A stretch of DNA of 58,074 nt, counting the filler, from Sphacelaria rigidula (Eukaryota): NCBI GenBank assembly GCA_964200075.2. It is 7 parts of 7 records of this genome, joined end to end, with 100 filler letters (N's around TTAATTAATTAA, not from the genome) between each part and the next. Parts side by side here need not be neighbours in the genome. Positions count along the whole stretch, not along the records: positions 24,934 to 33,144 come from CAXNAA020011907.1; 6 more parts are not named here. The stretch is one strand, 5' to 3'. Shown piece after piece: positions 8,212 through 51,937 of the stretch; positions within the stretch are counted from its first letter, which is position 1; each line of letters starts with the position of its first letter. The position numbers were made by a program, and so were the translations under genes. The notes beneath the pieces are model-generated. The model searched no databases, had not been told where the DNA came from, and saw nothing but the letters and a program-made list of their open reading frames with translations.

Positions 8212-8311
8212 NNNNNNNNNNNNNNNNNNNNNNNNNNNNNNNNNNNNNNNNNNNNTTAATTAATTAANNNNNNNNNNNNNNNNNNNNNNNNNNNNNNNNN
8301 NNNNNNNNNNN
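8212..8311. other. Artificial contig linker N44-TTAATTAATTAA-N44
   Basis: Exactly 100 bp. The palindromic 12-mer puts stop codons in multiple frames on both strands. Confidence 0.99.
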
Positions 8312-11288: not shown

Positions 11289-12738
11289 TTACATGGAGGC
11301 GGTATTATGGGAGGTGGGGAAGTTGGAAATCCCATCAGATTCAAGATTTCTCTCGAGATCCAAGATTCTCTCACAGCGCTTCGCTCCTGGGTGTCCTGTG
11401 TTTTCCACTCCCCATGATATGAGGAGGGTATTTCGGGAGGTAAGGGTCCGGACAAAACGCACCTCGTGTGTTATGATGCCCAAAACTTGGAGAGTGTGTT
11501 GGTTTGTACCACAGGCACATGTCAAAGTCACAGCCTCAGTGGCGCAAGGCGCTGAGGGCGCGGTGTGCGTTTATACGGTGGATACCAGCATTGCGCTCAT
11601 CTTTTGTATTCAACACTTGCTGTCTGATGACAATTATGAGGGTATGACATCAATCGGGCACGCCGGCGGCAACGGGTCCTGCCAGCCACGTCATAAATCT
11701 TCGATTAGTTATGGATCAACATTCGGACATGAACAGCTGAGAAGCACCCCTGAGGCTTCGTGATATATCTGAGAATTTGGGGCTCAACGTTCTAACTCCA
11801 ACTCGTTCGACAGCTCTAAAACGAGCTCCTCCACGGACCTTCGACAGCGTACCTGGCGACGAGGCAACGTCCCGTTACAGGCAAAATCTGACAGCCACGG
11901 AGGTGATTTTTGTCGAATTCTTCACCAGGTACACACTTGGATGGAGTACGGCTGTTTCCGGTTTGGACGTATAATAGTTCGGCGATTCACCAACTTCCAC
12001 TTCGCCGAGGTCTTGCGGACTAGTTCATTATTTTGCAGGTAACACGTTATGCTAGTCCAGTTCCGCGCCAGACACGATCAGAAACAGGAACTCGTGTGTA
12101 CAGAGTGGCGCCCGCGGCTCTGAGAATTTGGTGCCAACATCGTCGTTAAGTCCTAGATCGGGGCAGGTTTTGAGTTGCACCTGCAGGCGATCTCTGCAGT
12201 GACGTTCGTCTTCCGCCATGCATATTTCTCCACCGCCGAAGCACACGTGTCGCGCCAGCTGTCCGTACTGGTTTTGATCACCCCTCTTGCCAGGACGGTT
12301 TCTTTTCAAAGCCTAATTCAACCCTTTGACCGAGATGCGGGTGGTCCACCTGGATCATACATATTTTTTTCAGGTGAAACTGATGCCTATACAACAGATG
12401 ACCCTACTCTCGCCGTCTAGAGGTCAATACCGGCAATCCTGTGGAACATGACTGTTTCATTTGGAACATGAAAATTCTCATCAAATCACCGCCACAAAAT
12501 ATTACACGTCATGGAAAAGGTACAGGACTGGTGTCAGGTAATATTCAGACATTTCCGGCAGGATACGCTGCTTTACAGCCATGAAACCTACACACAATAG
12601 GCTTTTTGGCTCAAGTTTGCACGTGGTAACCTCGGCGGAAAATGACGGGCAGACAGTGTACTACGACGCCGAGACCAGTGTAATTCGTGAGGTGGCCAAC
12701 CTCCCCCCCCCCCCACCCCCCCATCCGGCGATAACACG

Positions 12739-12835
12739 GCGTGCTCCGTCCCGGCTTTGCAGGCATGCGAAGTCAATGGTCCTACGACTATAGCATGCAT
12801 GATCATGAGCACCCGTCCACCCCCCACCCCCTTCC
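12739..12835 (+). repeat. Fragment of high-copy unclassified repeat (CGTGCTCCGTCCCGGCTTTG...ATGATCATGAGTACACCCCCC end)
   Basis: Homologous segments at ~21873-21965 (+), 33245-33310 (+), ~51905-51937 (-) and ~57970-58074 (-). Confidence 0.8.
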
Positions 12836-16522: not shown

Positions 16523-16622
16523 NNNNNNNNNNNNNNNNNNNNNNNNNNNNNNNNNNNNNNNNNNNNTTAATTAATTAANNNNNNNNNNNNNNNNNNNNNN
16601 NNNNNNNNNNNNNNNNNNNNNN
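16523..16622. other. Artificial contig linker
   Basis: N44-TTAATTAATTAA-N44. Confidence 0.99.
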
Positions 16623-17259: not shown

Positions 17260-17660
17260 ATACACGTTTCCCACCTGTCATGCGTATGGTGTGGCTCATC
17301 GGTACATGTTTCCCAAATTTTTATTGATTCAGCATGAGTCATAGGCACACGCTCCCCACCTTCCATTTATACGAGGTGAATCAAGCGTACATGGTTTCCA
17401 ATTTCCGTTCATGCAGCATAAAATCATACATGCATGCTTCCTGCCTTCCATTCGCACGAGATGGATCAAGCGTACATGTTTCCCAACTTCCATTCATGCA
17501 GCATAAATCATACATCCATGCTTCCTACCTTCCATTCGTACGAGATGGATCATGTGTATACGTGTACCACTCTTCATTTATGGAGCATGACTCATACGTA
17601 CATGTTCTCTGAATTTTGTTCACATGATATCAATAAGAACGTGTTGTTTCCCACCTGTAA
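17260..17660 (+). repeat. 42-bp tandem repeat array with alternating A/B monomers
   Basis: The conceptual translation repeats every 14 aa and alternates HS(Y/H)E(V/M)(N/D)QAYMFPNF with HSCSINHT(Y/S)M(F/L)PTF. Confidence 0.85.
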
Positions 17661-18984: not shown

Positions 18985-19370
18985 CATACACGATGAATCA
19001 TGTGATTCATGCAAATATTTTCCACCCTGCGTTCGTGAGAATGAATCACAGATATGTTTCCCACCTCTTATTTATACGAGGTGAATCAAGCGCACATGTA
19101 TCTCCCCTTTCATCCATGGAGCACGAATCATGGCCACAAGCTCCTCACCTTTCATTCATACGAGGTGAATCACAGGTACGTGTTTCCCAATTTTCGTTTG
19201 TGCAGCATGACTCATTTGTACATGTTCTCCGCTTTCCATTCATACGAGGTGAATCAAGCGTATGTGTTTCCCAATCTCCGTTCACGTAGCATTAATCATA
19301 CGTACATGTTCCCCACCTTCGATTCATTCGAGACGAATCAAGTGTACATGTTTCCCACCCATCCTTCATA
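18985..19370 (+). repeat. Second 42-bp tandem repeat array, same family and orientation
   Basis: Same 14-aa-periodic conceptual translation (FHSYEVNQAYVFPNL / RSRSINHTYMFPTF). Confidence 0.85.
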
Positions 19371-20700: not shown

Positions 20701-22169
20701 CATGTTTGCCTCTTTTTACGGTCTGTAGACTCGAGATCTTTGCGAAGTGATCGACACACCGCGCGACCGTTGGTAAGCGGCACAGCAGGCTGCCAAAAAC
20801 GGGACGGGAAAAAAAAGCACAGATTATTAAAATACAATGGCAGGAATGGCCACACCACATCGATAGCGCCACATTCCGCATGCTCTGTGAAGTTAAGTAG
20901 CGGCGGGCCAGGCTAATACTACGGTGGGCGTGGGTGGGACGTGGGACGCCCTGGTGCTGTTCCTTTTAAAGTGCGACAATCAATCAATCAATGGCTGAAT
21001 ACCTCCGTCGCTCAGTCATCGCTTTGGCATTCGGCGCAAGCAGGTCCAAGCAACTTGCCCGGTACGGCGCTGGTAATGTACAAAACAATTGTAGCAGCAG
21101 TAGAGGCACACGAAGTGATCGTGGGGTATAATACATGAAGCGATTATGGAGACGGGAAGACAAGGGTGCAACACCAAGTACTGCGCGAAAACAAATTGGG
21201 GGGATTCGTAGCTGATCCAACTCCAAAGCGCAATAATAATGGCTTTCATTCGATCGAAGCTTCCTGTTTTTATCGACATATGAACCGCCGTAACTTATCA
21301 AGAAGATGACAGAAGCCAAAAGGGAGCAAGAAAGGGAGCGTGCCTGCCCACAACGGCCAGCGACCACTTCGGCTCCCTCAGAGGAAAAAGAACAGAATTT
21401 GAGCAATGCCGCGATAGCCCCCCCCTCCCAGCCTGGCCCGGCGCAAACCCGGCGTGTTACGTCCCGGTTTTGTAGGGACACAACCCCTATGGGATTGTCG
21501 CCAGTTGGCAATGACGCTGTAAAACACGCCTCTCACTGCGTAAGCTACGAAACCAGGTTACCGGTTGTTTTGGCGCGCTTGCGTTTTTTTCGCGGTAACG
21601 ATGATGGTGGTCGAGCTAGATTACATTGTGCGTAAGTGTTTAAATGGTGAGACAGCCATGAGGCAGTGTGTAAGCCGTGGCTGTCTCTAGAAGTGGCGAT
21701 ACCAGAAAATGAAGCAACTCATTGGAGCCTGTCATCCAAATGCAAGGTCATTAGTACGCTTCGGGTCGAATAATCTTGGCAGAATGCAGCTCACCCTTCA
21801 TGCGACTCGCCGAACACATCACGGCGCTTCGCGCTTGGTGGCTGATTGCGAGCCTAGTCCGACAGAAACCCCGCGTGCTCCGTCCCGGCTTTGTAGGGAG
21901 GTGAGGTGAATGGTCATACGGCTGCAACATGCAATATCATGAGTACACCTCCCCCCTCCCTCCCCCAACCAGTCCCAAAACTATGAACTCAAGGACCATT
22001 CAGCGCATGGTAGCTGATTTCCGATGCGTATGAAGCACCTCGCAACGGCGACATTGGCAAGAACGATCCCAATCGTGGGAGTTCCCAGATGGCCGGTGTG
22101 CTCAGCTTTTGTAATTTTGATTGACATGTAGCATTTTTGCGCTGGAACACCGTAGAAAGAGGTGAAAGG

Positions 22170-24833: not shown

Positions 24834-24933
24834 NNNNNNNNNNNNNNNNNNNNNNNNNNNNNNNNNNNNNNNNNNNNTTAATTAATTAANNNNNNNNNNN
24901 NNNNNNNNNNNNNNNNNNNNNNNNNNNNNNNNN
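24834..24933. other. Artificial contig linker
   Basis: N44-TTAATTAATTAA-N44. Confidence 0.99.
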
Positions 24934-28990: not shown

Positions 28991-31774
28991 TGTTCATGCT
29001 ACCATTGTTGTCCCCACCCTCAGATGATAGAAGAAGTCAATGGGGATGCGACAGAGTTCGACCTTGTTGACGGGAGAAGTCACACAAACAGTGTCGAGGG
29101 CTCCGACACCGTGTCGTCAGCACTGTTCGCATTACTTGCCATCTTCCGATGCTGTTTATTTCGGCTTTTGTACAATCAGTCAGTCATCCCCTGCCGTCAC
29201 TGGCGATCACTGCGAACGTCGCGAACCGTCATTTATCGAACGCATGGCCTGCTGCAAACACTTCAGGGCTAGACGAAAACATTCCTGTGTTTTCTCATGC
29301 AGCGCGACGGAGATGAGTTCCTCTGGTCAGGCGTTAAAGCGCTGCCCCATCATCAGGCTGGGAGACATGAGGGGGGCTACAACAACTCTGCCGCTGTAAC
29401 TTTTGTGTCTTTTGTGTCGACAGTACGGTGAGATAGTGCATGCGTCCCATGAGACCAGCGGATTCTTCACGAACTTCCCTCCATCGCAGCAACACCACTT
29501 GCTTCGTGGTTGGCCGGGAAATATTACAGAGCAGTCGTGCTCGTCAACCCTCGTAGATATTCCTATTCGCTGCTTAGATATGAATTCGTGAGTGGGCGCA
29601 AGGTCCGTTCACGCGGGCAACAACGTTGCCAGGATCGCTTCATGTTTCCTGGCAGTGCACGTATTTCACCTGGACAGGAGACCTTGCATGGTTCATGAGA
29701 GAAATATGATGTAGCATCACATACATGTTTGATAAAGAAAACCATGTAGGAAACGAATACGGCCATGTACTCGTAGTTGTAATAATATTTTGTGGTGGAA
29801 CCGTCTGTAGAGCACACACCGAACGGGGGAGCACACGAAACTGCCACGAAGCATGTTCACGTTGGCCGGCCACCTTCTTCGTTCTCTGTGGTATTTCGTC
29901 AAGGGTCAGGTATCTCACGGTTTGCTCGTCCGTTCAAGGTGCGCCGCAGTGGTCTGCTGCCTGCACAGCGTAGGGCAGTTCCAGGACAAGGTCATTCACT
30001 ATTCAAGAGAAGAAACCGTAATGCTCCACAAATCACCTTAACACGCGCTCATGTTCCCCACCTTTGGCCATACCATACCATCAGCAAGCCACCGAGGGCA
30101 TGTGGGTGGATTCGTGGCCCGCTACAGGTGTGCCTGCTCTAGATGTCACAGACGACAAAGATTGATCCTCCTTGACGCCATACCGGCGTCCGCAATCCAG
30201 CTTCGCTTTCTCTCATGAATTTGTCAGCCGACCAACACCATCTGATCTTCACCCCACAAGGTAAACCCGTGTGCATACGCGGCTCACACTCATACTTCAA
30301 CGCCGTACAAAAAGCACGCACCAGCCGCGAACAATGAGCACTGTAACGCGTTGGAGGACCGCGTGCTTAGAGGACCGCGTCGCATTATAGTATGAATGAG
30401 CATCCCAGGATTGACGTTTTTCTAAATCAATCGAGCTGGTCCCTGCAGGCAACACACCCCTGGTCCCAGCACTAACCTCAATAACACCGACACTGAGGAC
30501 AGGGGTGCCTAAACTCCGATGCGGTCCCCTAAGCATGCACTCCTCCCATGCAATATAGGCACCATCATACTCACACGCACCTGACCAGGTCAACCAGCCC
30601 GATCCAACTTTGCTTCGCCTGGCTGCTGCTTTTTTGCTCCGGACGACGCTTCCTTGTGAGCGGGTGATCGTGCTGCTTGGACTCAAGACGTGGTAGGAAT
30701 CGTTGGCAGCGAACGTAGGAGTGGGGTGCGAGTGGGGCTATTATTTCCCCGCTGTCGCACTTCCCGTCACTGTTTTCATCGCCAAAAGAACGTGCTCGTG
30801 GGCGGGTTGAATAGCCTTTGATGTCAATTTTTTCCCTAGTCACAGAGATGGTGGACATACTCATATGATACTTAGCACGACAAAAATACTATGGTACAAC
30901 AAGCCCAGCACAAGTCACGTACATCTCCTGTGGACGCATGTGTTGTCACGCAATGGGATGGATGCGTGTCAGCTTGTCAGGAGGTACAGAATGAGCTAAA
31001 TATGAAACTCGTCTGTGAAGGGGTCGCTATTTTAATGCGTGAGAGTACCGCGTGCTTAGAGGGCCGCATCAGAATTTGAACATCCCTATGGTTGGTAAGG
31101 GTTAGGGTTATTAGGAGTAGTGTTGGGGTTACGGTCAGGGGGGTGGTCCCTGCAGGGACTGACCCGGTTGGTTTTGAAAAACGTCGATCCTGAGATGTTT
31201 TGGACTACGACGCGGTCCCCTAAGCACGCGGTCCTCCCACGCATTACACCATACCCATAGGGGTGTTCGTTCGTACTCTGATGCAGTCCCCTTAGGTACA
31301 CGGTCCTCCCACGCATTATACCAACATCATTCTTCATCGGTGATTTCTTCGCACTTTTTTTTCAAAGATCCAAATCCAAATATCCAGGCGCACAGTGCTT
31401 GTCATCGGATTACATGGCACACCTGTAAGCACTCCGCACATGTAACAAAGCTGTATGCGTGCTATGATGTTCACACGCACTTGACTAGGTCAATCGGCCG
31501 AATCTGACTTTGACCGGCCGTGCTGCTGATTTTTTTTTTCCGAACGACGGTTCCTTGTTAGCGGGTGATAGCGCTACTTGAACTCAAGGCGTGGTAGAAA
31601 TCGTTAGCAGCTGACGTAGTAGTGGGGTGCGAGCGGGGCTATTATTTCCCCGCTGTCGCAAATCCCGTCACTGTTTTCATCGCCTAAAGAACGTGCTCGT
31701 GGGCGGGTTGAATAAGGTTCCACTTCGATATCAAATTTTCACTGGGCACGGAGGTGGCAGACATGCTCATATGA

Positions 31775-32070
31775 GGACCAACGCCCGGATGGGTAGGGTG
31801 ACTCGTGTACAGAGTCGAGTTAGGGGACATTGTAGGAGGTTTGGTCGTGAGGAACATTTTTGTTTTTATTTTCCTAAGTCCGACACTACCTGGGTGGGGG
31901 GGCACTCTCACCTTGGTGCCCATCCATACATTCGCCGGACATGCCTACCCTCGGGTGGGCATGTCTGACGGGTGGAGCGACTCGAAGCGCTGCACGAAAC
32001 TAGAAATAGCGAAGTGAATTGTTTAAGGGTCCTTCCTGTCCTCTGGGGATAAAAAATTAGAAAAGAAAAA
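31775..32070 (+). mobile_element. Non-LTR retroposon insertion (SINE-like or 5'-truncated element) with A-rich tail and ~15-bp TSD
   Basis: Flanked by GACATGCTCATATGA (31760-31774) and GACATCCTCATATGA (32072-32086). It ends in AAAAAATTAGAAAAGAAAAA. The paralogous copy has a single GACATACTCATATGA at 30853-30867 (empty site). Confidence 0.8.
31939..32016 (+). ncRNA. Degenerate hammerhead-ribozyme-like motif
   Basis: CTGACGG (31965-31971; consensus CUGANGA), stem II GTGGAGCG/CGCTGCAC (7/8 pairs), GAAA (31996-31999), stem III CTA-GAAA-TAG. The cleavage triplet and stem I are degenerate. Confidence 0.45.
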
Positions 32071-33144
32071 AGACATCCTCATATGATACTTGATACGACA
32101 AAAATACTATGGTACAACAAGTTCGGCACAAGTCACGTACATCTCCTGTGGACGTGTGTGTTGTCACGCAATGGGATGGATGCGTGTCAGCTTGTCAGAG
32201 GTTAGAGGACTGCATCAGAATTTGAACATCCGTATGGTTGGTTAGGCTTAGGGTTAGGATTAGGGGGCGCGGTCCCTGCAGAAAAGACCTGAGCGATCTT
32301 TAAAAACGTCGATCCTGGGGCGTTCACCTATTATTGGAACGCGAGGAGGGCGGGTCATTCATACTTCCTTCAAGTGAAATTGATGGCGGATAGCCTTGTC
32401 TCGTCGTCTAGGGGTTGACCCTTAGATCGCGAGATTAGTCTTTCTGGACCATGCATACTTTTTTTCACTTGAAATTGATGCCGATTCAACAAAAGACTAC
32501 CCTCGCGGTCTTAGGGCTGAATTCCGATGCGGCCAGAAAGCACACGGTCCTCCCACCCATTGCATTACAACAGTATCGGATCAATTCATTTGTCCGAGAA
32601 GAAATCCTGCTGACTGGAAGGCATCTTGAAAGCGCTGAAAGCAGCGCGGGCGAGCGGAGACAGAGAGCTGGCGAGCACAAGCCATGCCTGTTCTCACGCA
32701 TGATCGAAACGTATTGACTTGTCGGTCACATCAGAACATAGACGACGGTACAAATCGAATCATTATGTAACAACTGTTGTAGCCGGGCTCGGTATTTTCT
32801 ATGAGAGAAAACGAGGCGCCGCACAGCAGACGTCGATTTTGACAAAAACACTACGTTCTGGACTAGCTGGGTCCACTGCTCACCTCCCCCACACACACCG
32901 CTAGCCAACGTCCTGCCGACAAGAACCCCACTGACGTGTACCGCACAAGGAAAAAAATACACGCATCCCACACTGTACCCCGCTGGAACACCGGCGATAA
33001 CGTGTGCCGGCACTCGAAGGGGTACCATGGTTCTGTCGACCCACGGCCTGCTCCGGTCTCGCTACGCGTATAGCGTGGGACCGCGCCTGCGACTAAAAAT
33101 CGGATGAATTCCCTCACGATCGCGTGCTCACGATCCCCTCCGTG

Positions 33145-33244
33145 NNNNNNNNNNNNNNNNNNNNNNNNNNNNNNNNNNNNNNNNNNNNTTAATTAATTAA
33201 NNNNNNNNNNNNNNNNNNNNNNNNNNNNNNNNNNNNNNNNNNNN
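33145..33244. other. Artificial contig linker
   Basis: N44-TTAATTAATTAA-N44. Confidence 0.99.
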
Positions 33245-34829
33245 GGATGCGAGGTCAATGGTTCTATGACTATGGCAAGCATGATCATGAGTACACCCCC
33301 CCCTCCACCCTCCCAGTAACCCCCTTCCTTTTCAATCCTTCGACGTCAGCCTCGATTTCAACTTGTTCCGAACCCCCGACTTCTGTGCGCGAAGTTCTGC
33401 GAGGGGGTAAAACGTCTGTGTTTTTGACGCGCAACGCATCGACTGTACAAAAACAAACAGACAGAGGGTTTTCACGGCATCGTGACCAATCTTTAGACGT
33501 GCACAACAACATATGATCCCTTCCTCCGTCATCTCCCGAAATTCCCAAGATGGTTACAGAACAAAATCCTACGTTTTTCGGATACTCGCAGCGAGGTGTT
33601 CATGTCCCGTTCGAAAATGGAACCGATCGGATTATCCACACTGGTCCCATTCTAATCTCTACTTGGAATTGAAGGGGGGTAGTTTAACTTTTTCCAACAT
33701 GCCCTCGTAGGCCGCCAGCTTCTTTGCCTGAGAAAACATGTATACCTTCTACACAACACACAAGAGCCGCGTGTGCCAGAGGAAAAAAAATGGAAAAAAC
33801 GCTGTAGGGCCTCACCTCATGTGGGGTGCGTAAGCTACTATTATTAGGTGGAACAAGTATTCTTCTCGTGGGTGCCTCGCTTTTGTAATCACAAGCTTCA
33901 GTAACACGGGCAGTACAAACAATATCTCGGGGGAAAAAAAAAAGGTCACCCGGGATGAATTTGTACGTGAATGTACGAGACTGGGCACTACTACTCGTGT
34001 CATGCTCATATTTTCAGCCAGAGCCAAACTGTTGTCCACGCTTTAGTGGGAGAAAACATCAGCGCAAATTGACGCAATAGCTATGCAGATCATTCTCAAC
34101 TAAAAAGAAAGCGTACCACAGTGAGTGACAAACGCCTGGCTCGTGCAGTAAATGAACTTTAGAGTATTACCATCTAATCGGCCGCGTATTTACGCCTTAC
34201 GTGTGACCCACACCTCGCTCACCTTGGGGCTAGCGTTTATGACGTTGCCCTCCCTGGCGATGGCCGCTCCCTCGGTCAGAACGGGAAGCGGTGCTTTTCT
34301 TCGCGGTAACGCGATCTACCATAGCATACAATATCGAACGATGTCGACCGGACGGCGAACGGGAGCAAAATCGGCACACCAGCGAAAATTCGGAACACGG
34401 GAAATACAAGCACCATGTTTTACGCGCTCGCTATGGACTATTTCATGGGGGGCGGGGCTGGTGGGCTTCGTGTCGACCGGACCGGGCCGGACCGGGTCGA
34501 ATCGTAGAGCGAGCACGGGCCTGGAGGACAGATCGGATCACATCAAATCAAACCAAACCGACGAAAACAGGCCATCAAGAACCGGCACCTGATCAATCTC
34601 CCTCGCCTATTTCCAAGAGGCCGGCAACGATAAAGCGTGAAATTGCTCTCCAATTATATGAGACCCCACAGGCGAGAACATATACTGTACAGCTCTTGGG
34701 CTTCGAGCAGATTCCTTGCTGAATGCACGCATGTACTACAGAAATGAACGCGAGCAGCAGTAGCTGCACTCCAGAAACGGGGGAAAGCGGAACAAATAAC
34801 ATGTCATTTTTCGTTGTCTCATATCTTAC

Positions 34830-41454: not shown

Positions 41455-41554
41455 NNNNNNNNNNNNNNNNNNNNNNNNNNNNNNNNNNNNNNNNNNNNTT
41501 AATTAATTAANNNNNNNNNNNNNNNNNNNNNNNNNNNNNNNNNNNNNNNNNNNN
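41455..41554. other. Artificial contig linker
   Basis: N44-TTAATTAATTAA-N44. Confidence 0.99.
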
Positions 41555-41926
41555 GGGGGAGCCTTGTCGAGCTGATTTTCGTTGCACGTTTTTTCCCTCC
41601 TTTGCAGGACCAATTGGATACCCCCCTGTGTCCAAGCGTATGCTATCTCACATCTCGTCCTCCTTTTCCAACCCCTTAACCCCCCCCAGAGAACGCACTA
41701 AGGCTCTCGCAGTAACCGCGTCATAATTGTTCCTCGCGTTGACATGCCGAACTCGAAACGATTCACACACGAACAAGAATACGAAGACAGAGTGGTACCA
41801 TGTTACACCTTATTGTCATTCCTCCATTTTTTCCCCCACTTGGTGGACCAAACCTAGAACCAGCACACTCATCCGTCGTCATTCGTTCATCGTTCACTTG
41901 ATCTTTCATTGCAACCGATGGCGCAG

Positions 41927-43341
41927 CGACTCCGGCGGGGGTCTGTGGGTGGGAAAGCACCAACAGCGGTTCGGCCGCAGGCGGGCGGAGCGCGCTTGTG
42001 AAAGCTGGGACCCGGTATTGCTGGAAAGGGGTCCGGAGGCCAGGGTTTGTGGAGGGGGGCGGCAGCACATCGCAAGCTAGTGGTTGTCATCTTGTCGGCG
42101 TGGAACGGGTAGATCGTGCTCGCGGCGCGGACAAAGTCGGAGCACAGACGAACGGGTGTCCTGTGTCTGTAGGAGCGGGAAGCGACAGCGCTGAGGGCGT
42201 GGTCCCCGGTGTCGACGGTAGCGGTGCTGCCATTCCTAGCACCGATATGTCCTGCAAGAAGTCATCTTCCCTCGGATCCAGCGATAGCCTAGAATCTTCG
42301 CGGAGCGACGCTGCTGCGATCTGCAAAACAAACGATACTCCGGGGTGTGTGACGGTTAGGTCCGACTCTCGTGAGAACAACCCTCACGAAGCCCGAACAA
42401 TCGCGGGCAGCAAAGACTCCGTCGTTGTCACTCCAGCGGTCGCCAGTAGTAGTATTGTCAGGCCCCAAGCCGGGGAGGCTAGCGCTGCCGCTTCGGGCGG
42501 CTCGTCGACGAAATCGGATCCGGCGGTAGGCTCCAACATACCTGCTGTGAAAGGCGGTGGTGGTGGTCCAAGTCGCCGAGCTTGCAGAGAATCCACGGTG
42601 GCGGCGCGATTGGCGGCGCGTGTACCTTACGTGTCGCCCCGCGCCGCTGCCGCCGCTGCCGCTGCGAAGCGGCGCTGCATAACGACAGGTGGAGCTATCG
42701 ATCTAGTAGGGACAGTCGAAAATGTGACCAAATCTACGGAGGAAGGAGCGGCGGCGGGCGAGGCAAACAGCACGGCACCGGAACCCGCACCGGCAGGGCG
42801 AGCGTCGGGAGGAACGCCGGCGGGCCGAAAAAGTGAAGACGGGGCTGGGAAGGCGACCCGAGATCCGGAAGGTGGGGCGGGAAGGTTGAAAAGTCCGCAG
42901 GCGAGCGGTGAAAGTAACATGGCAAGATCAACGACCGTTCCGAAGGACCAACATGAACGAGCGGAAAGCGGCGGCGGCGGCAGCGATAGTGGTGATATTG
43001 CCGCTGGAGACAATCCCGGTGTGACCCCCGCGTCGAAAGGTGCCGTGCGCCCGTTTTTCGGGTCGACAAAGCCGCCGGTCGGGGATAGGACCAACGGCGG
43101 TAGTCAGCAACGCTCGCCTGCCGCGCGGCTCGCAGCTTGCTCTCTGCGGCGCCCGAAGGAAGGAAAGGAGACTATGGATGAGGTGTCGTTCAGGTTGGCG
43201 ACTCTTCAGGAGGCGCTGGGTTTGTTGGAAGAAGTTGCAATCCGTCCTGCGCTTGGGCGGGTAGCGGATGCTGTGCAGATTGGCGTGGACGGGAGAGCCG
43301 AAGACCGCGCAAAAAACGTTGCCGCCATTCGAATCGAGAGG
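41927..43341 (+). CDS. EsV-1-7 repeat-containing protein, exon A (low complexity; 5' boundary tentative)
   Basis: GC-rich ~1.4-kb open frame ending AAIRIER at AGG|GTGAGT. Putative GCGCAG acceptor at 41925-41926. Confidence 0.75.
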
Positions 43342-43805
43342 GTGAGTGTTTTATTTTTTTTGCTTTTCTGATAGGTCTACTTGGATTTTTTCGCCATAGC
43401 CAAGAGTGGGCAAGGGGTGAGTCCTGTTGTGATATTCACCGCAATTGTGGCACTTTCCTTGTCAAATATACGAATGGTGAAAAGGACGGGTTTTCAATGT
43501 AGCATTATTGGTGAGGAAACGGTTCGACAAGTGTTTCGTTGCCTGTCCCGTGTCTGATTGCGTTTGCTCTGCGCCCCCAGTGGAACATGAATCGATTTTT
43601 TAACAGCCACGACAGAGGTTGGGGGGGAAGGGGCACTGAAGAAGAAATAAGAGTCGAGCGTGTGAATAATCGAGAAGTTTCCCGTCGTTTCCTTGTCAGT
43701 CCCGAGATCCCGCTCCATAGTTTTCCAGTGTGTAACTCACACCTCCGCCCCCGCCCCCGCCCCCGCCCTTTTCTATTGGTACACATTCCGCCTTCCCCAT
43801 GTCAG

Positions 43806-44726
43806 GCTTGGCGAGCTGTCTCTCACGTAAAGTCTCGCGGAAGAACTAAGAGACGAGCCCGCACGGAATCTTTCTGCTCCTTATCCTCGTCCTACTCAGC
43901 CACAGACATCCCTGCTCAACCGGCCCGCAAAAGCGGCGGCATTGGCGACGGGGACTCCCCGGCGACCGTCCGCAACAAGAAACGCCGGCTCCTGGAACAG
44001 CGCCGTAGGATACCGCCCGAACAAGAGAAACGGGGGAAGCCGTCCACGACGGAGTCATCGGTTTCGCTTTCTTCCTCCTCTACTGGCGCAGGTGCACTGC
44101 TCCCGCCGTCGGGGCTATCGTGTGATTCAAAAGAGCGGGGATCGACGACGGCTGCGACAGCGTCGCCCTCGATGTCGAGAGCAAGAAACCGCACGACGCC
44201 GCCCTCGCCGCTCGAGACGGCGGGGCGAGCGGATGCGAGCGTTGGCCATGAACGCAAGCGCCCCGCTTCGAAACATGACGCGGCGGCGGCCCTGCCGGGT
44301 TCGTCGTCAAAGCGCAGTAAGCGATCCGGCCGTGCAGAGTCCGGCGTCCTTCCCCGAGGGCCGCCTTTAAGGGGCTTCTCCAAGGGTGTGTTGGCGTTAG
44401 ACAAGGCACCGGGTGCGGACGGCGGAGGGAGCGATTCGAGCGCTGGCCATGACGAGCGCAACCCGGCGAGGCGAGCAGGCAGCGGCGCCGGCGGCAGTGG
44501 AAGCAGTACTGTCCCGATTAGTTCTGGTGGTGGCAGGAGCGTTAACAAGATGAGCAGAAATGTACACGGCGGTCTCCACTCAGACCGTGGGCGCAATAGA
44601 GCGGATGACGGCAAGCGCCACTCGTGTCGGGAGTTCGATTGCGCGAGGAGGGCACACTTCGGCACGCCGGGGTGGGTTCCGGTGCACTGTGTCGAGCACC
44701 GACGAGATTGGGAGGTGTTCCTGAAG
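43806..44726 (+). CDS. EsV-1-7 repeat-containing protein, exon B (first EsV-1-7 repeat)
   Basis: CAG|GCTTGG acceptor, phase 0. Ends CREFDCARRAHFGTPGWVPVHCVEHRRDWEVFLK at AAG|GCAAGC (GC donor; alternative GT donor at 44715). Confidence 0.8.
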
Positions 44727-45087
44727 GCAAGCTTTCTGTCCGTATATTTTGTGTGTTTGGAATGTCGGCAGTTTTCGCGCGGTGTAACCGAGGGACATGG
44801 GCACGGTATTACATCTGGGGAGAGGGGGGCGTTCGTCAGATGTTGGACATCAACATGTGTCTACCGCTCTCGGCTCACACTAGCGTACCAATGCTGAAAA
44901 TGATTTCATCGCCACAGTTGGTGTTGGCAGGGTCGGAGGGAAAAGACGAAGACGGCCGTCACATCGGCGAAACGTGTGAAAGCTGATGTAACCCCCGTCC
45001 GCCCGTCCATCTATCCCTTCTCGATTTCCATCATTAATGCCACTGTCACAAGTCTCGAGTCCTCTGGTCCTTCCGTGCTCCCATGTC

Positions 45088-45369: not shown

Positions 45370-45983
45370 GTGAGTTGATCGATTGTTTGGATTGATTGTC
45401 GCACACGAAGTGATTTCCCCGAGAGGTCCAGTGGTCACAACATTGACGAATCCAAGAAGGCAACACGGAAACACTCTCCAGAGAAACTCGAGAAAAGGAG
45501 GAGACATATGGAGAGAAAACAAATGAAATAGAGCTCGTTTTTGGGTATTTATTGGCTGATCTGATACCGTCGCTGCGGCTGGGCTGGAGGAATGTGATTC
45601 CGGTGCTTCTCCTTCACAAGTTTTCTTCTCTTGTTGCGTGTTCACCAGCATGATCGAATGTCGTCAATTGCTGGTGTATATTTCTCCTGTTGATTTCTCG
45701 CCACGTGCGTGTTTTCAGCCGACAGCGTCTTGTATGCAGGCGCTGCCCTGGAATACCACAGTACATACCATCCGAGAACACCCGAAAGCACTGTCGTCGA
45801 GCTCATGTCTAGCGCAGCATATATATTGTTAACTCCCACGAGTAGTCGCTTGAAAGCTGAATCATACTTCGCAACCGTTCGCTATACCCCCATCTCCCCA
45901 CCCTCTCAACCACTCAGTTCCGGCCCAAAGTTCCTAGATTATTCACTAATCAAATACCGCGCACAATTTGCAATGAAAACCAG

Positions 45984-47392
45984 GTACCTGTGGACTCCGA
46001 CGCAGAGGACGATTCAGAAGAAATGGCGGCATCGGAAGCAGCGGCCACAGCGGCAGAGTCAGCCAGAAAAGCGGCGGCTGAAATCGCGGCTGCCGCTTCC
46101 TCCGAGGCCGCACAGACCGTCGCCGCGCGCTGCGGTTGCGGCGGCAGAGATGAAAGCAACACAAAGCAGGCATCTCCGGCGCGGACGAACGTTACGAAGT
46201 CGACCAGGGTAGGAATTGTTGGAGATTCGAAAGATCAGAGCGGTGTTGTGAGGGACGATCGGTGCGCGGTCGATCATCGTAGCGCGAGGGGTACTGTGAG
46301 TACCCGTGTTGGCGGGGGTAGCCGTGTCGGGGGGGTGCGCAAGGTGGGGCCGAAGAAGGGTGGCAGTGCAAGTGTCAAGAAGGGAAAGGAGAAGGCAGTT
46401 TTGACTGGTGTTAAGCGGGGACGGCACGAGGAGAAGGAGGAGGATAGCTCGGATTCCGATTCCGATTCCGATTCCGATGGGAGCTCGGACGGTTCAGGGT
46501 CTGATGATGATGCTGACTCGGATGCTGGGTCGTCATCGTCATCATCATCGTCATCGCTGTCGTCTTCGTCTGATAGTGACAGTGAAAGCGATAGCGACAG
46601 CGATAGTTCATTGTCGTCGTCGTCTTCTTCATCGTCGTCAGATGATGATTTGTCATCGTCAGATACCGGTTCAACATCGTCATCGTTGGCGTCGTCGTCA
46701 TTGTCCTCGTCCTCGCCATCAATTTCGTCATTGTCATCATCTTCCTCCTCGTGCTCCTCTTCCTCTAACAGCTCTTGCGGAGCGACAACCTCTCCAACCA
46801 CAACAAGTACAAAGCTACCCGAAAAAACAAAGAAAAACAACGTCAACACCAATCTCAACGACGCATCCTTCACCCCGGGACGCTTCGTCTACCTGGTACC
46901 CAGTAAGAAATGCGACCGCCCGATCCTCGTCGGCAAGATCCTACCCCCAACGCCCGCCACGGCTGCCCTCGCAGAAGGCGACGCCCCCTCTCAACCTTCA
47001 CGCCCCGCCCGTCCATCATCACCGGAGACCGTCCCGCCGCCGACAATCCCAGTATCGTCGGCCACGGCCCTCTTGCTAGCTCAAGTGGCCGCGCTAAGCG
47101 GTCACCACGCCACCGGTGCCGGTGGCAGCGCTACCGGCGCTACCGGCGTTGCCGCCGCCTTTGCCGGTACCGGCGGCGTAGAAGCCATAATCGGTGGGCT
47201 CCGAGGCGGGGCAGGGGCAGGCGGGCGGGAAGGGAGTGGCAGTGGTGGTGCGGCCGGAGCAGGGGACAAGAAGTGTGAGGGGGGTAGCGGAAAGGCGGAG
47301 GGGAGCAAAAATCGTGTGAGTGAGGACGCCAAAAAGTGGATATACGTACACTGGCATACTCCTGCTAGTCTTCGGCGTGAGAATTACTGCAG
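45984..47392 (+). CDS. EsV-1-7 repeat-containing protein, exon D (Ser/Asp-rich tract, start of C-terminal globular domain)
   Basis: CAG|GTACCT acceptor, phase 0. Open to TGC AG|GTGGGG. Contains PGRFVYLVP...PILVGKIL and KWIYVHWHTP. Confidence 0.8.
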
Positions 47393-48061
47393 GTGGGGAA
47401 TCTGGTCGAGTTTTGAAGTCTAGGAGGGGGGGGGGGGATGACTAGGGAGAAGATAACATTCGGTGTGTTCAAGATTTTGAGTGTAGAAAGGCGGTGCTCG
47501 AAGGGGATACCGCGTGATACATAGTCGCGAACGACCGTTTGGCGTGGGAATCGTCATTTACTGGTGAACTTGTTGTATCTGTGTTGGGTCATGTACACTT
47601 CTCAGCAACATTTGGTCGCGCTGGTAATGGGCACGAAAATCCTGAATCGCTGGATATACCCGGAACAGGGAATATGGGTGTCGCCATGAAATCCTAAACA
47701 TGAGTGCAAAAGAGAAGAGCGTCGCGAAGTCGTCAACGTGCGCGCAAGGTGACTGCCCTTTCCCCCTGCCCCCCGCTCCCCTTACTTGTGAGCAAATGCT
47801 TGTATGTAGAGAGGCATTGGTTACGAGGACATTTCGAATGTCGTCATGAATTTGTGCTGCTTGGAAAATAACCTAGACCGGCACTTGCTGGTATTTTCAT
47901 GTGTCCTGGTGCTACTTGGTAACCCAGCCGCGCAGTCGATTTTGAGGTCGGCGTCTCGGAAAGAGATTATTATTATTATACGCATGCGTTTACACCTCTT
48001 TTCACTCCGTCCGCGTGTTCTTGTTTCGTGCTTCTCTTGTTTTTATGTCTCTCTCTTTCCG

Positions 48062-48770: not shown

Positions 48771-49764
48771 TCAAACCAGTCGAAGGTCTACTTCCCACTG
48801 GTAGAGAGCTGTTGTTGACGTAATGTACTGTTTTTTGTTGTTGTTGTGTGTGTGTTTTTCCTCGAATGATTGAGGTCTTTTCAGGGAAAATGCGCCAAAA
48901 ATCTTGAAGATTTGATCAGTATTATAGCGCAATCCGAACGACGGCCACTTATACTCTGTTCCTAATTGCTCTGTGGGGGTGGTGAGATGATGATCATGGG
49001 TAGACACGAATGCTTTTTTTTTCCGTGGGGTTCACCAACACATTTATGTGTTCATTTTTTTTTCGCTTTCCCAACGGATGAGAGGACGGCAGGGGAAACG
49101 GGCTCATCGACCGTTCGTGTCGTTGTGTCTACGGGGCAAGGATACTGAGGGAAAATTTCCGCCCCGCCCGGGAAATGGCGAAGTTGTAGTGTTGTAGTTA
49201 TACCGTTTCTGAAACAGCGGATTGTTGTGCTTAGTGGCGTATGGAGAGTCGAGCATTTTCATGTACGATAGCGGTCTTTGGTTTGGTGTTGTTCATGTCT
49301 TACGCGAGTTGCAACTAGTCCAGGTTATCCGCCTCGGCTGTTGGGGAGGGGGGGGGGGGCTTACCGTTGGCGGGGTTTCTTACATTCATGGGGAACATGA
49401 CTTTACGATTGTTGGCGCTGCTCAACCCGTTTTGTATGTACCTTATTTATGTCTACGTGGGGGTACCATGAATCGTGGGAACTGACTGTGCCGCGCACGT
49501 TCCTTACAGTACAAGTATGAGAGTTTGTTCGACGGGTCTCGTTGTGTATGTCATGCGATCTCGCGTTACGCTTCCCGTTGGCTGGGCGACACGTTTACAG
49601 CACTACTGTGACGGGATAGTGAGGGAGGAGGTCTGGAGGGAGAAGGGACGAACAGGCAAGCAGGGCAAGCCGGGAAAACGGGGGGGGCGTACTCATTTGT
49701 TGCTTGCCCTAGTCGTTTGACCATTGACCACGCATCCCTTTCGAGACGGAGCACGGGGGGGGGG

Positions 49765-49864
49765 NNNNNNNNNNNNNNNNNNNNNNNNNNNNNNNNNNNN
49801 NNNNNNNNTTAATTAATTAANNNNNNNNNNNNNNNNNNNNNNNNNNNNNNNNNNNNNNNNNNNN
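49765..49864. other. Artificial contig linker
   Basis: N44-TTAATTAATTAA-N44. Confidence 0.99.
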
Positions 49865-51589: not shown

Positions 51590-51937
51590 CGGGGGGGGGG
51601 GGGCGTACTCATTTGTTGCTTGCCTCAGTCATTTGGCCGCTGACTACGCATCCTTTTCGAGACGGAGCACCATTTCTACTCCTAACAAGAGACACCTCCA
51701 ACATTTTGGCGCTCATTACGTTTCTTCTATACATTACGAGTACACTATACCCTTCACATGCCTTATCCTCTTCCTGTTTCGCCGTCTGTGACTGCCATGT
51801 ATCTCCTAGTGTGGCGACCGTTGTCTCGCTACTATTTAAGGTACCAAACGATTTCATGCCCAATTTTTTAACTTCCCACATTTCTCCCTCTAACACGCCC
51901 CGTCGGTGCGGGACGGGGGGGTGTACTCATGATCATA
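51590..51937 (-). mobile_element. Most complete copy of the high-copy unclassified repeat (both ATGAGTAC(A/G)CCCCCC modules)
   Basis: Joins the module seen at 12739/21873/33245/57970 to the module seen at 14340/49680. Confidence 0.65.

Follow-up and report, generated by a model that had tools for sequence, protein, structure and literature searches.

Short retroposons of brown algae and their closest relatives

The most abundant repeats of Ectocarpus are described as long interspersed nuclear elements (LINEs) together with short non-autonomous families, whose 3′ ends are common with LINEs and whose heads are of unknown origin (PMC12477816). These families include RTEX-N1_Ec32 (∼600 bp, more than 6000 copies), RTEX-N2_Ec32 (188 bp) and RTE-N1_Ec32, which is likewise non-autonomous (PMC12477816). 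Here we analysed a stretch of 58,074 nucleotides, filler included, from the brown alga Sphacelaria rigidula (assembly GCA_964200075.2; 'the window'), in which a 297-bp insert with an A-rich tail lies on the part taken from CAXNAA020011907.1. The insert is most probably a copy of a very abundant, non-coding, non-autonomous retroposon without long terminal repeats (non-LTR), derived from the 3′ end of a LINE that encodes an apurinic/apyrimidinic endonuclease (APE) and a reverse transcriptase (RT).

When compared by description, the window element resembles RTEX-N1, RTEX-N2 and RTE-N1 in its brown-alga host, in being short (188–1320 bp in those families, which reach thousands of copies) and non-coding, and in having its 3′ end in common with an autonomous LINE, with neither a known small-RNA head nor a proven RNA polymerase III (Pol III) promoter. 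It differs at both ends. The Ectocarpus families have (C)n or (CAA)n ends and C-rich target-site duplications (TSDs), and their last 12–100 bp are common with the LINE, whereas the window element has an A-rich tail and a 12–15-bp TSD of mixed composition, and starts inside the LINE open reading frame (ORF) (PMC12477816). A second likeness is to the trypanosomatid elements NARTc, RIME and SIDER, which are also short, A-tailed, TSD-flanked derivatives and carry a 5′ block of the parent LINE that is conserved across species (PMC4035085). That block, Pr77, lies at the LINE's 5′ end and has been shown to act as a promoter and to contain a hepatitis delta virus (HDV)-like ribozyme (PMC4035085), whereas the block in the window appears to be the end of the ORF and the start of the 3′ untranslated region (UTR).

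With classical short interspersed nuclear elements (SINEs) the window element has in common its size, copy number, LINE-dependent spread, A tail and TSD. Unlike them, it has no small-RNA head and is LINE-derived throughout. It is a further case of an already known kind of element, the LINE-derived non-autonomous retroposon.

A retroposon insertion with its empty site preserved

Two tandem paralogs in the window (30630–31100 and 31531–32300) are ∼90% identical. Their alignment is interrupted by a single clean gap that lies exactly between direct repeats, with the insert present in the second copy (Table 1). The 3′ terminus of the insert is TAAAAAATTAGAAAAGAAAAAA. An earlier note on this DNA, which had proposed a ribozyme-bearing retroposon at this position, was right about the insertion, the direct repeats and the A-rich tail, and about the single occurrence of the repeat motif in the first paralog. 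Its coordinates needed correction, as the insert spans 31775–32071 (297 bp) rather than 31775–32070 (296 bp) and the empty site, at 30854–30868, is one base off the 30853–30867 given there.

The sixth base of the 15-mer differs among all three versions, that is, the two repeats and the empty site, so at least two changes have occurred at this base after the insertion. The duplication may be only 12 bp (31760–31771) if the element starts at 31772 (TGAGGACC...), in which case the TGA would be microhomology.

Part of the region 31500–32400 is contained in ten public sequencing runs, four of which were examined using contigs of at least 80% likeness. The 5′ junction (31500–31800) is bridged by contigs with no differences in two runs from different studies (X1 and X3), and the 3′ junction (31989–32186) is bridged by one contig with no differences in X1. 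The empty paralog is found on a separate contig at a depth of 31.3, compared to 26.7 for the flank of the filled site. Since both junctions are bridged without differences and the empty form has a contig of its own, the insertion is genuine, far beyond chance, and no artefact of assembly. With its filled and empty paralogous sites, the locus is a clean and dated case of retroposon insertion.

A very abundant family with a fixed 5′ end

Contigs leave no doubt that the element is repeated in great abundance. The region 31500–32400 is matched at 80% or more by 976 contigs in X1 and 1006 in X3. Those from X1 divide into 128 that are at least 99% alike, 274 at 95–99%, 335 at 90–95% and 239 below 90%. 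Summed word depth is 12,985–283,097 across 31779–32057 and 26.7–58 in the flanks, although depth summed over contigs is not a copy number. A single copy of 31877–32056, 90–95% alike, is also present in a run labelled as another organism (X6), and in X8, an RNA run only by guess, the family contigs reach varied flanks while the locus's own flanks are uncovered. Within the 58-kb window, blastn with a word size of 7 found no second copy.

The family has one 5′ end, as 85 contigs in X1 and 76 in X3 depart at position 31772 into unrelated sequence (agreement 0.32), with similarity starting at that base. At the other end, loose contig ends beyond 32056 open with A runs, including those in X8. Nearly all copies differ from the window copy at 31820, 31853, 31875, 31908, 31921, 31944, 32017, 32020 and 32029, and both indels and substitutions are found among copies at 31846–31870. 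Internal deletions also occur. Ten of the 15 joints listed run from about 31811–31931 to 31985–31993, and the deletion joining 31847 to 31990 recurs in two contigs from X1, three from X3 and one from X8. The RNA of the element is predicted to be strongly structured, with a minimum free energy (MFE) of −114.2 kcal/mol (z-score −3.85) that none of 200 shuffled sequences reached.

The head of the element is the end of a LINE ORF

To find relatives of the 5′ head we scanned for exact matches to an 18-mer from it, which gave six loci (four metagenome, two genome). Two of these, L001 and L002, have 43–51 nt in common with the head at 86–88% identity, and the 22-mer ATGGGTAGGGTGACTCGTGTAC (31789–31810) is identical in all three sequences. 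The other four, L003–L006, match over just 18–19 nt and were set aside as chance.

In the metagenome contig L002, an open frame that encodes a CCHC zf-RVT-like motif has its stop codon within the head block. The frame shares 99% identity with the protein P0001 and, over its whole length, 63% identity with the C-terminus of P0002, a protein of 1407 amino acids with the Pfam domains Exo_endo_phos and RVT_1. Among solved structures, the RT of P0002 is nearest to human L1 ORF2p (PDB, E 1e-25), a match that identifies it as a non-LTR RT but gives no finer clade name. A word-index search with the C-terminal region of P0002 returned P0002 itself and nothing else.

The C-termini of these LINE proteins end in SDRSSDG (P0001), SGRSPDG (P0002) and SDQSPDG (P0004), and the window, read in the corresponding register, gives EDQRPDG and then a stop. 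C-termini of LINE ORFs include ...STSDQSPDG and ...SAPDQRPNG. An exhaustive HMMER search with P0001 as query found 526 relatives at E ≤ 0.001. Among the best 150, whose C-termini were checked, the ending [PS][DNGA]G, typically as ...GQRP[DN]G, occurs in 31, of which 13 are among the best 30. LINE ORFs of only 30–40% identity retain this peptide. The head of the element therefore descends from a LINE, and it matches [DG]QRP[DN]G-stop, the hallmark found at the C-terminus in a broad clade of APE+RT LINE proteins. Judged from sequence, the insert as a whole consists of the last seven codons of a LINE of this clade with its stop codon, followed by ∼254 nt of 3′ UTR and the tail, a reading based on the C-terminal peptide being in register and on the head block lying on the LINE stop codon in L002.

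No LINE coding sequence or LINE ORF was found elsewhere in the window (best E 0.23), and a Pfam search of its 15 long ORFs detected neither RT nor endonuclease, returning just EsV_1_7_cys and a sub-threshold PFF1_TM.

Beyond the TAG, the frame stays open for eight codons to a second TAG, reading GDSCTESS in the window (31794–31823) and GDSCTGSS in L002 (504–533). Stop-codon readthrough was considered and rejected, as the three of four nucleotide differences among the three sequences that fall at third codon positions are too few to mean anything.

An independent short family or truncated LINE copies

The anatomy of the insert suggests that the endonuclease and RT of a LINE would copy a short RNA into a nicked target by target-primed reverse transcription, leaving the 12–15-bp TSD. 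The short RNA would be recognised through its UTR and tail. Contig ends place the same 5′ end at many loci, so the short form is probably an independent family and not a collection of 5′ truncations at random points. The earlier suggestion of an A-tailed, TSD-bearing, non-coding, LINE-dependent multi-copy family is supported, for a brown alga, by the paralog gap, the contigs and the EsV-1-7 motif found in the window (below). The same note had also raised, against its own proposal of a ribozyme-bearing element, the possibility that the insert was the 3′ UTR of a LINE; this is essentially what we find, as the element opens with the last seven LINE codons and a stop.

Besides the fact that summed depth does not count copies, four points weigh against a LINE-derived short family. 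First, homology to the LINE-bearing L002 is limited to the ∼50-nt head and a short terminal motif: outside the head block, the 5-bp hairpin and the short motif before the tail, the window, L001 and L002 cannot be aligned, the UTR bodies included. Second, the LINE that carries the head block comes from another sample. Third, L001 has ∼75 nt of additional sequence at its 5′ side, so that not every member of the wider group shares the fixed 5′ end. Fourth, the tails of the LINEs curated for Ectocarpus are (C)n, (CAA)n or (CA)n, and none is an A run (PMC12477816). Among the LINE and Penelope-like element (PLE) rows of that source, Chlamys-1_Ec32 is the only entry noted with an (A)n end. Because the curated LINE tails there are not A runs, the partner clade would lie outside those of PMC12477816. 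On this reading a high-copy repeat of this brown alga is the tail of an A-tailed APE+RT LINE, a type outside the LINE families curated for Ectocarpus.

The main rival is that the copies are dead-on-arrival, 5′-truncated LINEs, with a truncation hot-spot that precedes the stop codon by ∼20 nt, for example a point at which the RNA is cleaved or the RT halts. The start of the element inside the LINE ORF is what this would predict, and a search of the element for a promoter, a small-RNA head or a ribozyme that could form the 5′ end found none. L001 also resembles a copy with a different and longer 5′ end. On its reverse strand, a possible 8-bp TSD ATGCGTGT at about 400–416 and 966–981 surrounds an A-tailed element of ∼557 bp, in which the head sits 75 nt inside the 5′ end and the open frame ahead of the stop is just 18 codons long (...SLEGRSPNG). 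However, the 85 and 76 contigs share an exact end base while their flanks are unrelated, depth peaks at the head with no rise towards the 3′ end, and internally deleted variants recur across contigs, as would fit lineages of short elements. For these three reasons we rate truncation lower than an independent short family, and consider it improbable.

The feature that deserves a further look is the conserved sequence at the LINE stop codon, taken with the fixed 5′ end of the short element. The ∼50-nt block around this codon (...QRP[D/N]G-stop, GGTGACTCGTGTAC and a 5-bp hairpin) could conceivably act in cis as the hallmark of a wide LINE clade, a suggestion we make tentatively and regard as less likely to be right than wrong. 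Were it correct, the block may serve in recognition by the RT, as an internal promoter or in forming the RNA's 5′ end; one route to such an end would be a product of decay or processing whose limit is set by the terminating ribosome. This block would then account for both the fixed 5′ end and the success of a parasite that consists of the 3′ UTR only and starts ∼20 nt before the stop. For the question of how such LINEs and the elements that parasitise them are recognised or processed, the block offers a modest, testable lead.

No small-RNA origin for the head

Short length, abundance, a fixed 5′ end and an A tail would also be expected of a classical Pol III SINE with a head taken from tRNA, 5S, 7SL or another small RNA, and by eye the 4-bp and 5-bp hairpins in the first 50 nt recall the D and anticodon arms of a tRNA. 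However, ARAGORN found no tRNA over the heads at default settings or at 90%, 80% or 70%; at 70% its hits in L001 and L002 lie outside the heads. In Rfam at E ≤ 10, 96 nt searched for a small-RNA head matched no tRNA, 5S, 7SL, Y RNA or snRNA family, and the hits obtained (flpD, Ms_IGR-2 and sR10; E 1.1–8.1) were noise. The head is instead the coding end of a LINE ORF, and there are T5 runs at 31858–31870 inside the element. Runs of this kind are expected to terminate Pol III. A small-RNA origin is therefore very unlikely.

Several other resemblances of the head gained no support. Likeness to the 5S boxes A and C and to the 5′ end of Y RNA was seen by eye, had no backing in Rfam and was dropped. 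For a 5′ ribozyme of the HDV-like or twister type there was no Rfam match and no fold conserved in the three heads. A candidate HDV-like P1 (GACCAA/TTGGTC) is present in the window only, P3 and P1.1 could not be placed, and by eye nothing of it is conserved in L001 or L002. RNAalifold of the three heads gave two small hairpins with no compensatory pairs among the three sequences. Lastly, the MFE fold contains a panhandle between the 5′ end and 32029–32035, but the T found at 32029 in the majority of the family weakens this pairing, and it was not seen in L002.

The hammerhead-like string is a probable chance resemblance

The earlier note had read a type I hammerhead in the 3′ half of the insert. 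Its motif order is present as described: CTGACGG (31965–31971), the stem II strands GTGGAGCG (31972–31979) and CGCTGCAC (31988–31995) on either side of ACTCGAAG, GAAA (31996–31999) and CTA-GAAA-TAG (32000–32009), followed by CG. Both stems can form, stem II with 8 bp and one mismatch and stem III with 3 bp. The deviations listed in that note, a G in place of A9, the stem II mismatch and CG after TAG, were likewise all seen, as was the hairpin at 31939–31964.

Natural hammerheads are defined by A9, U16.1 and H17. In the window copy core position 9 (31971) is G, position 16.1 (32010) is a C opposite A15.1, and position 17 (32011) is G. For stem I, seven of 12 positions could pair, four of them as G-U and no more than three consecutively. 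In the MFE fold, CTGACGG is itself paired as an extension of the 31939–31964 hairpin, which also holds the 5′ strand of stem I.

No match to any hammerhead family of Rfam 15 was found in 31500–32400 on either strand at E ≤ 10, the only hit being flpD noise, and none was found in L001–L004 or L006 at E ≤ 1. We also used a relaxed descriptor, allowing one core mismatch, at least 6 bp in stem II with at most one mismatch, GAAA and at least 3 bp in stem III, and needing neither UH nor stem I. This string is the sole site in the window, on both strands, that fits it. Random windows from a first-order Markov model contained 0.38 such sites on average, with at least one in 244 of 774. The descriptor found nothing in L001 or L002.

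A degenerate copy could nonetheless belong to a retroposon family whose consensus retains an intact type I hammerhead. In favour of this are the order of the motifs with their 8-bp and 3-bp stems, the status of the string as the only site in the window to fit the descriptor, and the occurrence of such ribozymes in PLEs and retrozymes. There are 61 variants among the family contigs, 21 of them beyond those listed, and 19 of the listed ones lie inside the insert. Among these 19, none repairs 31971, 32010 or 32011. The counts of change types in X1 leave room, beyond the variants listed, for three C>T places and a single place each of G>A and G>T, so that a full repair would have to fall exactly on these places, and stem I would still be absent. 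Furthermore, C3 (31965) is T in 28% of the family depth, and the CUGANGA half is missing from many copies because 10 of the 15 listed joints end at 31985–31993. Together with the absence of Rfam matches, the three wrong core positions, the unformable stem I, the competing fold, the chance level of the descriptor and its failure in L001 and L002, this makes an intact family ribozyme exceedingly unlikely. The string appears to be no better than a chance resemblance and would lie in the UTR without a ribozyme role. The ribozyme proposed in the earlier note is thus not supported: the Rfam models that it suggested give no match, and a consensus restoring CUGANGA and the NUH triplet is not seen among the listed family variants.

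PLEs and retrozymes carry canonical hammerheads, detectable with Rfam, in their pseudo-LTRs (pLTRs) or LTRs or in tandem units, and use GIY-YIG or LTR machinery. The window element resembles the hammerhead-bearing PLEs and plant retrozymes only superficially, in the order of motifs within a non-coding retroelement; unlike them, its partner is an APE+RT LINE and the hammerhead core is defective. Chlamys is the PLE clade recorded in Ectocarpus (PMC12477816), and its members mostly have no canonical hammerheads (PMC8557442). A 20-mer from the hammerhead region had no matches in metagenome_contigs, and three patterns had none in viral_contigs. A literature search combining hammerhead ribozymes and brown algae, judged by titles and the openings of abstracts, revealed no such element. 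This removes a false lead: we see nothing that would point to SINE-like elements of brown algae carrying a hammerhead.

Table 1. Positions in the window of the insertion, its parts and the related sites
Feature	Position	Strand	Basis
Unoccupied target site GACATACTCATATGA, motif once, in the first tandem paralog	30854–30868	+	Alignment; empty-form contig in X1 and X3
5′ target-site duplication GACATGCTCATATGA	31760–31774	+	Paralog alignment
Retroposon copy, 297 bp: LINE ORF end, 3′ UTR and A-rich tail	31775–32071	+	Alignment gap; multi-copy depth 31772–32057
Last codons of LINE ORF, in frame (E)DQRPDG, stop TAG 31794–31796	31775–31796	+	Translation; LINE ORF C-termini
Conserved block across the stop codon, including hairpin GACTC (31800–31804)/GAGTC (31812–31816) with a 7-nt loop	31789–31828	+	Alignment of window, L001 and L002
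T-rich stretch (runs of T5, T5 and T4) that varies from copy to copy	31854–31875	+	Sequence; contig variants
12-bp hairpin ACATGCCTACCC/GGGTGGGCATGT	31939–31964	+	Self-match of 85.7% over 28; MFE fold
Hammerhead-like string, probable chance resemblance	31965–32011	+	Rfam, descriptor, family variants
3′-terminal motif CTGTCCTCTGGGGA, resembling CATCCTGGGAGG and CATCCCTGGGAAC before the tails of L002 and L001, respectively	32036–32049	+	Comparison
A-rich tail, 17 A in 22	32050–32071	+	Sequence; other copies enter A runs after 32056
3′ target-site duplication GACATCCTCATATGA	32072–32086	+	Paralog alignment

Other features of the window

Immediately downstream of the insert lie two more multi-copy stretches, 32182–32243 and 32337–32398 (also 31040–31100 in the paralog), with summed depths of up to 86,472 and 7,973. 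The consensus of the loose contig ends at 32202 matches the paralog (...AATGCGTGAGAGTACCGCGTGC), which indicates another repeat family at this position with its 5′ part, ∼72 bp, missing from the second paralog. A short interstitial TTAGGG-like run, ggttaggcttagggttaggattaggg (32237–32272), is found in the second paralog only.

Three long open frames lie on the + strand at 41902–43368 (489 amino acids), 43515–44894 (460 amino acids) and 45861–47420 (520 amino acids). The second contains an EsV-1-7 cysteine-rich motif (E 5.9e-06), known from brown algae and phaeoviruses, which was the only Pfam match above the curated cutoff among the 15 long ORFs of the window; the first and third frames had no Pfam match. 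A gene cluster specific to brown algae, or a mobile element of no known class, may lie here.

An 84/42-bp tandem repeat forms two related arrays ∼1.6 kb apart, at 17302–17604 and 19062–19357. Dispersed repeats with a C-rich end (...CATGATCATGAGTACACCCCCCCC...) occur at 12724–12833, 21858–21967, 33245–33315, 49680–49754 and 51596–51670, and recall by description the (C)n-tailed elements of RTE-X type in Ectocarpus (PMC12477816). Finally, six pairs of 44-N blocks are spaced ∼8.3 kb apart (8212–8311, 16523–16622, 24834–24933, 33145–33244, 41455–41554 and 49765–49864) and look like masking rather than assembly gaps.

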